DNA of 22,667 nucleotides. It comes from a virus (Duplodnaviria; Heunggongvirae; Uroviricota; Caudoviricetes). Made by a program: the position numbers and the translations under genes. Below, one piece after another: positions 1 through 1,512 of this stretch (its first letter is position 1; each line of letters begins with the position of its first letter). The stretch spans positions 1 to 22,667 of the IMG/VR virus record IMGVR_UViG_2778261501_000002; one strand, given 5' to 3'. Below the pieces are notes generated by a model, which worked only from the letters and a program-made list of their open reading frames with translations, made no database searches and was not told the DNA's origin.

Positions 1-552
1 TTACCTGGTTGCCGGAAATTTTTTATATAGCGTCGATATCCCAACATCGTAAATTAATGCCACACGCTGTCGTGATTCACCTGCTGCAATCAACCTGCCT
101 GCCTGCGCCCACTGTTCATCAGTTAGCTTTGATCGACGCCCACCTATTCGCCCTTCTTCACGAGCCGCAGCCAATCCCGCCCTGGTACGTTCGACTATCA
201 GCTCCCTTTCCATTTCTGCAAGTGCGCCCATGACATGGAAGAAAAAGCGTCCCATTGGTGAAGACGTATCTATGCTGTCGGTCAGGCTGCGAAAGTTAAT
301 ACCCTTTTCCCGAAGCTCCTCCACCAAAACGACAAGATGCCGCATGCTGCGACCGAGTCGATCCAATTTCCAGACCACCAGCGTATCGCCTTCAGACAGA
401 GTCCTGAGTACTTTCTTCAAGCCCGGCCTGTCAGACGTTCTGCCGCTGATCTTATCCTCGAATATCAGTTCACATCCTGCGCACTCCAGCGCGTTTCGTT
501 GCAATGCAGTGTTCTGGTCATTTGTTGACACGCGTACATAGCCGATGAGCAT
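1..552 (-). CDS. pin: Serine recombinase, DNA invertase of the Pin/Gin/Cin/Hin family
   Basis: 183-aa ORF, ATG at 550-552 and TAA at 1-3. N-terminal catalytic-serine motif (GYVRVSTNDQ), resolvase core and C-terminal HTH (GISTLYKK); closely matches phage invertases as recalled. Confidence 0.9.
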   Translation of the reverse strand: MLIGYVRVSTNDQNTALQRNALECAGCELIFEDKISGRTSDRPGLKKVLRTLSEGDTLVVWKLDRLGRSMRHLVVLVEELREKGINFRSLTDSIDTSSPMGRFFFHVMGALAEMERELIVERTRAGLAAAREEGRIGGRRSKLTDEQWAQAGRLIAAGESRQRVALIYDVGISTLYKKFPATR

Positions 553-606
553 GAGAAATAACCCTGTAAAAATCCGGGATCATGCCATCTGAGCCGAATA
601 ACTGCA

Positions 607-632
607 TTTTCTAAAAGGTTGGTTTGGGAGAA
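607..632. promoter_or_regulatory. hix/gix-like 26-bp invertase crossover site candidate
   Basis: TTTTCTAAAAGGTTGGTTTGGGAGAA lies 55 bp upstream of the invertase start; imperfect dyad with central AA/TT, matching about 17-19 of 26 positions to gix/hixL as recalled from memory. Confidence 0.5.
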
Positions 633-971
633 GCGGCTAAAAGGAATGTAGGGACAGGGGCGAATCAGATACCTGATATGGGTAGCTTCACGCTTTCTGT
701 TTCAGGTACTGGATATCAAAAATTACCATCAGGTTTTATTCTTCAGTGGGGCTCAATCGGCGCACCAGGCATTGCACAGGATGTAGTAACCCATTTCCCG
801 ATTGCATTTCCAAACAGATGTCTGCGTGTTTTGGTCTCACAAGACTACACACCAGATAGCGGGGCTGTTGGTTATATTGCCTGTGCAGGTTTTAGTCCCG
901 ACCCGGTTAAATTTATATCCAGAGCCAGTACTCCTGGCCTCGGCGCTTCATTTTTAGCGTTAGGCTGTTAA
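624..971 (+). pseudogene. Tail-fibre C-terminal variable-segment fragment (Sv-like), no start codon of its own
   Basis: Reading frame opens directly at the crossover-site candidate (the track start is TTG). Divergent from the invertase and followed by a tail-fibre-assembly fragment; contains the [10 protein letters not shown] and FPIAFP motifs I associate with tail-fibre tips. Confidence 0.45.
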
Positions 972-992
972 TTTAGCTATATGGAGTGAAAA

Positions 993-1121
993 ATGAATTA
1001 CATATATTCCGCGACTACAAACTCTTTCTATCCGCTGGAGATGAAAGAGGATTACCCCAGCTCGCGGACATCCTTCCCGGTGGGTTCATCAAACTCCAGT
1101 ACGGAGAGTGTCTCACCATGA
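993..1121 (+). pseudogene. Tail-fibre assembly (Tfa) N-terminal fragment, truncated after about 22 codons
   Basis: GGAG 6 nt upstream of ATG 993; N-terminus MNYIYSATTNSFYPLEMKEDYP resembles Tfa N-termini, then the frame degenerates and stops at 1119-1121, directly abutting the convergent tail tube gene. Confidence 0.4.
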
Positions 1122-1155
1122 GCGATAATCGGTTTCTTTAACTCAAGCTCTTTCA

Positions 1156-1512
1156 TTACTGGTAATCCCCTTCTTCACCGTGGAACTCAAGATCAACCGT
1201 GCCTTCTTCGGCATTATGGTTCGCTTCTCCGTGCAGCCAGGCGGACGACAATACATAGACCTGACCGTTCGCCAGCTCGGCAGTGATGGTCATCTCATCA
1301 GACGAGGTGATTTTGCTCACCGGAAAATTCTTCGGCACCTTGAAGGTCCCTTTGACATAAGGCGCACGGTGAGTTTCCTTGCGGTCCACTGAACCGTCCA
1401 GGCCGATGATGTCATCATTGACCGTCCTGTTCATGGGCACCTCAATGCCGCCGGTCAGCGATAGCTGCTGACCGTCAATTTTGAAATAACAGGTTCCCCC
1501 GATACGGGCCAT
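1156..1512 (-). CDS. Phage contractile tail tube protein (Mu-like)
   Basis: 118-aa ORF immediately downstream of the sheath-like gene with a TAATG stop/start overlap at 1510-1514; size and position typical of a tube protein. Confidence 0.5.
   Translation of the reverse strand: MARIGGTCYFKIDGQQLSLTGGIEVPMNRTVNDDIIGLDGSVDRKETHRAPYVKGTFKVPKNFPVSKITSSDEMTITAELANGQVYVLSSAWLHGEANHNAEEGTVDLEFHGEEGDYQ

Follow-up and report, generated by a model that had tools for sequence, protein, structure and literature searches.

What becomes of a phase-variable host-range switch when the prophage that carries it decays is the question raised by the left end of the DNA analysed here, IMG/VR virus record IMGVR_UViG_2778261501_000002 from position 1 to 22,667 (22,667 nucleotides, hereafter the window), which opens on the gene of a DNA invertase, pin, followed by pieces of tail-fibre genes. 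The original prediction, made from the letters of the DNA, had read positions 1-1160 as what is left of an invertase-driven tail-fibre switch of the kind found in the G segment of phage Mu or the P region of prophage e14, probably locked, with an invertase that looked intact. We conclude with high confidence that 1-1160 represents the pin-proximal end of the tail-fibre inversion switch (‘P region’) of an e14/SfV-type prophage, inactivated by deletion. In the known e14 system the P segment is 1,797 bp long, carries tail-fibre genes, and is flipped by PinE and also by PinQ, which acts on it in trans from the Qin prophage; the inverted state blocks adsorption of phage T2 (PMC12529663, 2025). Switch remnants of this type are familiar, the pieces of this one are already annotated one by one in RefSeq, and it is a case of ordinary prophage decay.

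Complete-genome matches identify the window DNA as Escherichia coli chromosome. With window 1-1600 as the query against 5,426 complete E. coli genomes, matches at 100% identity were obtained in eight (AR_0118, AR_0119, AR_0128, Ecol_224, ARL09/232, MS6192, MS6193, and CH468), while more than 2,000 further genomes gave partial matches only. For comparison of gene order, the remnant prophage locus was taken from strain AR_0128 (L001; 25.6 kb, comprising 12 kb upstream and 13.6 kb downstream of pin), a more intact prophage from strain APEC20/16 (L002) was used as a stand-in for the ancestor, the locus of strain 2014C-3075 (L004) provided the same fibre tip in expressed position, and the CPS-53 locus of K-12 MG1655 (L008) was included. 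The APEC20/16 prophage lies at the same chromosomal position as the remnant, next to the same tRNA-Pro, SOS-peptidase, and DUF2188 genes.

The pin gene (1-552, minus strand) has its stop codon as the first triplet of the window and encodes a complete protein of 183 residues, carried in RefSeq as WP_023568707.1 in the matching genomes. It has the architecture of a small serine recombinase of the Din family, i.e., a resolvase domain (PF00239, 8.3e-51), a nucleophile serine at position 9 (S9, in VRVSTNDQ), and a C-terminal helix-turn-helix (HTH_7, PF02796, 8.6e-13), and residues 1-183 align end to end with the solved structures of Mu Gin, 3UJ3 and 4M6F (E about 1e-91). Kinship to the characterised invertases, which can substitute for one another in function, is close at the level of sequence identity, 88% to PinE of K-12, 82% to Cin of P1, and 79% to Gin of Mu, with 38% to PinR of the Rac prophage. 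These features assign 1-552 to the Pin/Gin/Cin group of Din-family DNA invertases and bear out the view that the invertase is of the Pin family and apparently intact.

Directly upstream of pin lies a single pix-type crossover site of 26 bp (607-632), built as expected for a Din-type site from 12-bp imperfect inverted halves around a 2-bp core: an outer half at 607-618, the core TT/AA at 619-620, and an inner half at 621-632. On the strand shown it reads TTTTCTAAAAGG-TT-GGTTTGGGAGAA, and its reverse complement is TTCTCCCAAACC-AA-CCTTTTAGAAAA. Compared with the recombination sites tabulated for the Din family (PMC3241671), it matches pixR of e14 at 23 of 26 positions, pixL at 21, a Min site at 20, and both hixL and cixR at 19; one of its half-sites is identical to pix at 12 of 12 positions and the core is AA. 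The number of matches of this quality expected by chance was 0.00 over 100 shuffles. The dyad had been likened to hix and gix sites with the reservation that a proper alignment might place it outside the recombination-site consensus, and it falls inside. The spacer between the site and the start of pin is 54 bp, the same length as in e14 of K-12.

On the other side of the core, the inner half-site encodes the residues GLGE of a tail fibre. In this frame (+3), a TAA codon at 612-614 lies within the outer half-site, and the frame is then open over 615-971 (plus strand), 118 codons that form a start-less, alternative C-terminal cassette of the fibre gene (Sv′), predicted to be silent in this position. 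The cassette has a Gp53-like_C domain (3.6e-15) and is 98.3% identical to residues 96-213 of a 213-residue fibre protein of strain 2014C-3075, as well as 26% identical (E 4e-7) to residues 96-208 of StfP of K-12, the part of that protein encoded downstream of pixL. That a start-less tip frame opens at the dyad had been correctly recognised, and the concern that it might resemble no tail-fibre tip is removed by both similarities. The comparisons with named tips gave a divided result: the C-terminus of StfP aligned, whereas the variable parts of S and S′ of Mu and P1 showed no detectable similarity to the tip. In the same way, the suggested origin from a G-segment or e14 P-region switch holds for an e14-type P region, with the qualification that the tip belongs to the P side (StfP/TfaP-like) and not to stfE/tfaE or to Mu S/U.

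The locus of strain 2014C-3075, ordered as ymfQ, fibre (213 residues), tfa, inverted tfa, silent tip, and pinE, resolves how the cassette is used. Window 610-1055 is 99.3% identical to a segment that lies there in the expressed position, in frame with the constant part of the fibre, pin aligns in the opposite relative orientation, and both alignments end at the crossover site. Because of this fusion and of the opposite orientation of pin, the retained cassette is a bona fide alternative tip with the crossover site as its boundary. Consistent with this, an in silico inversion in L002, which joined the constant part up to the core dinucleotide to the window-type Sv′ and the start of tfa, yielded an uninterrupted fibre open reading frame of 213 codons; crossover at the core thus brings the silent tip into frame with the constant part. 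The 726-bp junction predicted for this inverted state is contiguous in 382 complete genomes and, among the matches listed, 11 cover all of it at 96.6-99% identity.

Downstream of the cassette begins tfa, the tail-fibre assembly gene that belongs to it, of which the deletion has left the opening 21 codons (993-1055, plus strand). They lie within a 99.9%-identical alignment to APEC20/16, where they open a protein of 146 residues with a Caudo_TAP domain (1.5e-37) that is 61% identical to TfaP of K-12 over its C-terminal 102 residues. The proposal of a truncated tail-fibre-assembly N-terminus is therefore upheld by the intact homologue. BLASTP of the 21-residue stub itself against TfaP, TfaE, U, and U′ gave no match, and identification of the stub rests on contiguity with that homologue, not on similarity at the level of the family; PGAP labels it ‘incomplete, missing C-terminus’. 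What the original prediction had overlooked is a further stub on the minus strand (1052-1156), the N-terminal 34 codons of a gpE/gp41-like tail assembly chaperone (TAC), which matches Phage_TAC_7 at profile positions 2-30 of 79 (1.9e-5), is likewise called incomplete by PGAP, has its stop directly past the point where the alignments break, and adjoins the tube and sheath genes. The full chaperone of 89 residues is present in APEC20/16, and the true break in the region is the deletion junction at 1055/1056, between the two stubs.

This junction was located by BLAST and by three-way comparison with L002. Window 1-1055 corresponds to L002 12001-13055 at 99.9% identity and window 1053-1160 to L002 22631-22738 at 99.1%, the two alignments overlapping in a 3-bp microhomology, TAC, at window 1053-1055 (junction feature 1053-1056). 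Relative to L002, positions 13056-22633, i.e., 9,578 bp, are missing from the window. In the intact relative the order of genes from the left is pin (minus strand), the pin-proximal site, Sv′ (plus), tfa (plus), tfa (minus), and a fibre gene of 266 residues (minus), continuing with ymfQ, baseplate J, gp46, V, baseplate assembly protein, DNA circularisation protein, tape measure, TAC, tube, and sheath. The exact pixL sequence, TTCTCCCAAACCAAGGTTTTCGAGAG, is found at L002 14505-14530 inside the inverted 266-residue fibre gene, whose translation across it reads ...ALENLGLGE..., and it is inverted with respect to the pin-proximal site at a distance of about 1.9 kb (1,870 nt between the repeat arms). 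The missing DNA thus holds the partner pixL site, the constant part of the fibre, the expressed tip, and one and a half tfa genes, together with the whole baseplate gene set, the tape measure, and most of TAC. The partner site and the constant fibre part, which the original prediction could not find, both lie within L002 13056-22633.

The parental sequences at the break have only TAC in common, inside the imperfect pair GGATTAC/GGGATAC. Since the overlap is limited to TAC, and since the pix site at a distance of about 435 bp has been left unchanged, the 9,578-bp deletion would have arisen by illegitimate, microhomology-type recombination and not by the action of Pin. The accession of Pin is shared by the AR_0128 remnant and the intact APEC20/16 prophage, as is that of Sv′ (WP_000534552.1), and the crossover site is identical in the undeleted relative. 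Because Pin has the same accession there and the flanks are 99-100% identical, its intactness would reflect a recent deletion and not selection.

Taken together, these comparisons suggest the following course. In the intact element, Pin would bind two inverted 26-bp pix sites, one beside pin and the other within the fibre gene, where the constant part meets the variable part and, with Fis on an enhancer in the 5′ end of pin, would flip the segment of ~1.9 kb. The constant N-terminal 97 residues would in this way receive one or the other of two C-terminal tips, for each of which there is a separate assembly chaperone. The 9,578-bp deletion then took everything between codon 21 of tfa on the silent side and codon 34 of the tail assembly chaperone gene, leaving an intact pin, a probable enhancer, an orphan pix site, a silent start-less tip, and the 21-codon tfa stub.

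Of the two inverted sites that define a Din-type switch, only one is present in the window. In searches allowing up to three mismatches and in a 26-mer scan that scored the best match to any of 13 known sites, no second pix-type site was found in the window, where nothing else exceeded 19 of 26; the second-best 26-mer in the window scored 19 of 26 and its core is not AA. The scanner recovered both sites in five of five positive controls (K-12 e14, Mu, P1, L002, and L004), and a pattern suited to scans of this kind is TTCYCCCAAACC-NN-N12 with 3-4 mismatches. The runner-up, TTTTCCTTTTGCGTTGTTGGGGATAA at 6405-6430 (plus strand), resembles hixR, has a GT core, and lies inside the tail of the score distribution; it was dropped as a partner and is probably a chance match. 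Nor was a second pix-type site found in the 25.6 kb of AR_0128, covering 12 kb upstream and 13.6 kb downstream of pin. The P-region arrangement of a constant N-terminus and two tips, each followed by its tfa and set head to head, is complete in L002, L004, and K-12, and is represented in the window by one tip and 21 codons of tfa; the cassette is seen in both positions only across relatives. Since the defining second site is missing, the switch is to be classed as a remnant and not as a working member of the family. Both the window and the 25.6-kb AR_0128 locus offer a single site and hence no segment to invert, and the local switch would therefore be locked, as had been supposed, with its fibre tip unexpressed.

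The window begins at the stop codon of pin, so that the DNA upstream of pin is not visible in it, and this would leave room for a switch that still works over a larger or relocated segment, with the partner site and the constant fibre part outside the window. We consider this very unlikely. No second site occurs in the 12 kb upstream and 13.6 kb downstream in AR_0128, nor in the 22 kb downstream in the window, and the truncation of tfa to 21 codons together with the loss of baseplate and tape measure means that even an inversion would restore neither a functional fibre nor a phage. For the rest of the chromosome we used a proxy, in which the 303-bp constant fibre part including pixL was appended to window 1-1600 and the places hit per genome were compared with those of the plain query at megablast sensitivity. 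AR_0128, MS6192, MS6193, CH468, and ARL09/232 (five of the eight remnant-bearing genomes) gained no place at that sensitivity. Some observations do weigh against inactivation as we describe it. In the other three genomes, AR_0118, AR_0119, and Ecol_224, the proxy gave one additional place that matches the constant part at another chromosomal position, so a pixL-type site may be available in trans in some hosts of the remnant; separate searches in a distant mode gave 2-4 places per genome. The window strain could itself hold a distant partner site, as it stands outside the eight genomes, all of which lack window 5783-7766. L002 is a proxy for the ancestor and not the ancestor itself. Lastly, a simple sigma-70 promoter scan of 1-1600 on both strands found no promoter, including none for pin.

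How the deletion was made, and whether it is real, was weighed on the same comparisons. Din invertases are able to use secondary crossover sites, and such use has reportedly been seen with Cin; on that footing Pin itself could have produced the deletion by recombining pix with a pseudo-site in direct orientation. The product, however, does not fit: pix 607-632 is intact and the same as in the undeleted relative, the junction 1055/1056 is about 435 bp from the crossover core, and the parental junction sequences offer TAC and the imperfect GGATTAC/GGGATAC only, scoring far under any Din site. Deletion by Pin is accordingly highly improbable and is effectively refuted by the position of the junction. 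An assembly artefact at the junction is more improbable still, and is refuted by the presence of the same 1,600 bp, junction included, at 100% identity in eight independent complete assemblies. A microhomology-type deletion in the prophage is the explanation that we retain.

A different reading of the cassette comes from its annotation. An ATG at 678 opens a frame to 971 (plus strand) that PGAP calls in every genome, and RefSeq lists it as a stand-alone ‘gp53-like domain-containing protein’ (WP_000534552.1) in remnant and intact prophages alike. It might accordingly be an independently expressed small gene, for example a free receptor-binding domain acting in superinfection exclusion, and there is a parallel in StfE2, a protein that is made and blocks T2 adsorption and whose gene starts on that side of the e14 P segment which lies next to pin (PMC12529663). 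Against this, the scan of 1-1600 gave no promoter-like site on either strand, no obvious Shine-Dalgarno sequence precedes 678 by eye, and the TAA at 612-614 closes the frame and so prevents read-in from upstream; moreover, the near-identical tip of 2014C-3075 forms the C-terminal 118 residues of a 213-residue fibre when it is in the other position. We regard independent expression as quite unlikely, and the calls at 678-971, like the label ‘integrase, frameshifted’ on the silent tip beside pinE in L004, look like annotation artefacts produced by invertible cassettes. For annotation this means that what RefSeq presents as a stand-alone protein would really be a silent, start-less cassette.

Locking of the local switch leaves the enzyme itself. 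It is possible, if unlikely, that the orphan Pin is still expressed and acts in trans, on segments of other prophages or on the orphan pix site together with a distant pixL. By analogy with the action of PinQ on e14, Pin could flip the fibre segments of other prophages in the cell, with an anti-phage effect; alternatively, the orphan pix site could pair with a distant pixL-type site, such as that in a CPS-53-like yfdL or the extra locus of AR_0118, AR_0119, and Ecol_224, and in that event large chromosomal inversions or deletions would follow. If Pin does act in trans, the remnant would not be dead DNA but a regulator that has been kept, or an origin of genome rearrangements. Because invertases of the Pin type encoded by cryptic prophages can work in trans and make cells resistant to phage (PMC12529663), orphan invertases and orphan pix sites, such as those of the window and the pixL of CPS-53, may be considered candidate enzymes and substrates for cross-prophage recombination.

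Comparison with known systems places the remnant closest to the P region of e14 in K-12 (pinE, pixL/pixR, stfP-tfaP / tfaE-stfE), with which it shares the order of genes and the logic of their orientation. The likeness extends from the 88% identity of Pin and the 23 of 26 matches to pixR, among them the whole 12-bp inner half and the AA core, to the 54-bp spacer, the block upstream of pin described below, a tip of the same Gp53-like_C family as the C-terminus of StfP, and a prophage with genes of the ymfL/ymfQ type. In contrast to e14, the window keeps one of two sites and has neither the constant part nor the second tip nor any complete tfa gene; its tip is a different allele (26% identity to the variable part of StfP), the DNA of pin is about 74% identical, and the prophage lies beside tRNA-Pro, whereas e14 of K-12 ends at the icdC pseudogene. 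The Mu G/Gin and P1 C/Cin systems share with the window an invertase that aligns over its full length (79% to Gin, 82% to Cin) and sites of 12-2-12 architecture. As in Mu, the invertase gene adjoins a silent Sv′ cassette and, as in P1, the enhancer would occupy the homologous position in the invertase gene. The tip and the N-terminus of Tfa, however, have no detectable similarity to Mu or P1 S/S′, and the C-terminal 73 residues of the full-length Tfa of APEC20/16 share about 30% identity with U′. The invertible segment is about 1.9 kb in the intact relative, versus about 3 kb for that of Mu and 4.2 kb for that of P1, and in the window it is not invertible.

Other cryptic prophages of K-12 show decay products of related kinds. 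Rac holds stfR-tfaR-pinR and has no Din-type site of at least 19 of 26 within 10 kb, the same kind of product as in the window. CPS-53 carries a truncated fibre gene, yfdL, with an exact pixL (26 of 26; L008 4216-4241), the tfa gene yfdK, and a fragment of inverted tfa, with no invertase; it is the reciprocal, mirror-image remnant of the one in the window, which keeps the invertase, one site, and the silent cassette. The orphan pixL of CPS-53 shares the K-12 cell with PinE, PinQ, and PinR.

Two putative accessory elements were located in and beside pin. The annotation of P1 places the enhancer of Cin-mediated inversion at nucleotides 19-90 of cin. The corresponding part of pin (nucleotides 19-90; window 463-534, minus strand) aligns with it without gaps and is a putative Fis-dependent recombinational enhancer; the 60 identities over 72 positions are confounded by coding constraint, as this is the most conserved coding segment, and for that reason the conservation is not independent evidence of an enhancer. 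Fis-like G-N13-C 15-mers at 517-531 and 468-482, with their centres 49 bp apart, are found at the same positions in pinE of K-12 and in gin of Mu. Upstream of the gene, a conserved TGgCATGAT block (579-587, minus strand) could be an extended -10 element of the pin promoter, a weak suggestion, as the block came to light by alignment and not in the promoter scan: an invariant ATGGCAT-AT block is found at the same distance from the start of pin or gin in the window, e14 of K-12, L004, and Mu gin, with G as its seventh base for the window and Mu, and C for e14 of K-12 and L004. Pin may still be made.

The annotation of AR_0128 describes the region as a heavily fragmented prophage beside a tRNA-Pro gene. 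Its features follow in the order recombinase, ‘gp53-like domain-containing protein’, incomplete tail fibre assembly, incomplete tail assembly, tube, and sheath, and then terminase fragments, a ymfL fragment, cro- and cI-like regulators, yfdT, and an integrase. In APEC20/16 an IS3 element lies at L002 10562-11724, between a fragment of DUF4113 and pin, and has no counterpart there in AR_0128, which has an IS1 further upstream.

Signs of deletion are seen in the window beyond the switch as well. The sheath gene (1512-2651, minus strand) has an in-frame internal deletion of 357 bp at about 1929-1930, with a 2-bp overlap at the junction, and encodes 379 residues as against 498 in APEC20/16. The 376-residue open reading frame at 2814-3944 (minus strand) joins the N-terminus of a TerL ATPase to an unrelated fragment, and PGAP divides 2814-4406 into adjoining pieces that it assigns to a hypothetical protein, the large subunit of terminase, the P27 small subunit, and ymfL. 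Judged from these sequences, 2814-4406 would contain more deletion junctions, which gives the element at least four internal deletions in all. The locus can accordingly be read as a clean, datable example of prophage decay, with several short-microhomology deletions, one of which halved a phase-variable host-range switch.

A segment of 1,985 bp (window 5783-7766), holding an open reading frame for a YfbR/yfdR-like 5′-deoxynucleotidase and one with DUF551, is missing from all eight genomes with the pin-side deletion and is present at 99.4-99.6% identity in other E. coli prophages. Since the window keeps this segment, its strain would be a less-decayed sister of the eight, outside the complete-genome set. 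Two tyrosine integrase genes stand in tandem at 8367-9530 and 9703-10926, and the second opens a different element that runs on to about 22667. The right part of the window therefore looks like a second prophage or satellite in tandem with the remnant; it contains a homologue of major capsid protein E (13728-14759, minus strand) and an open reading frame of 616 residues without a Pfam match that bears the RefSeq name ‘TolA’.

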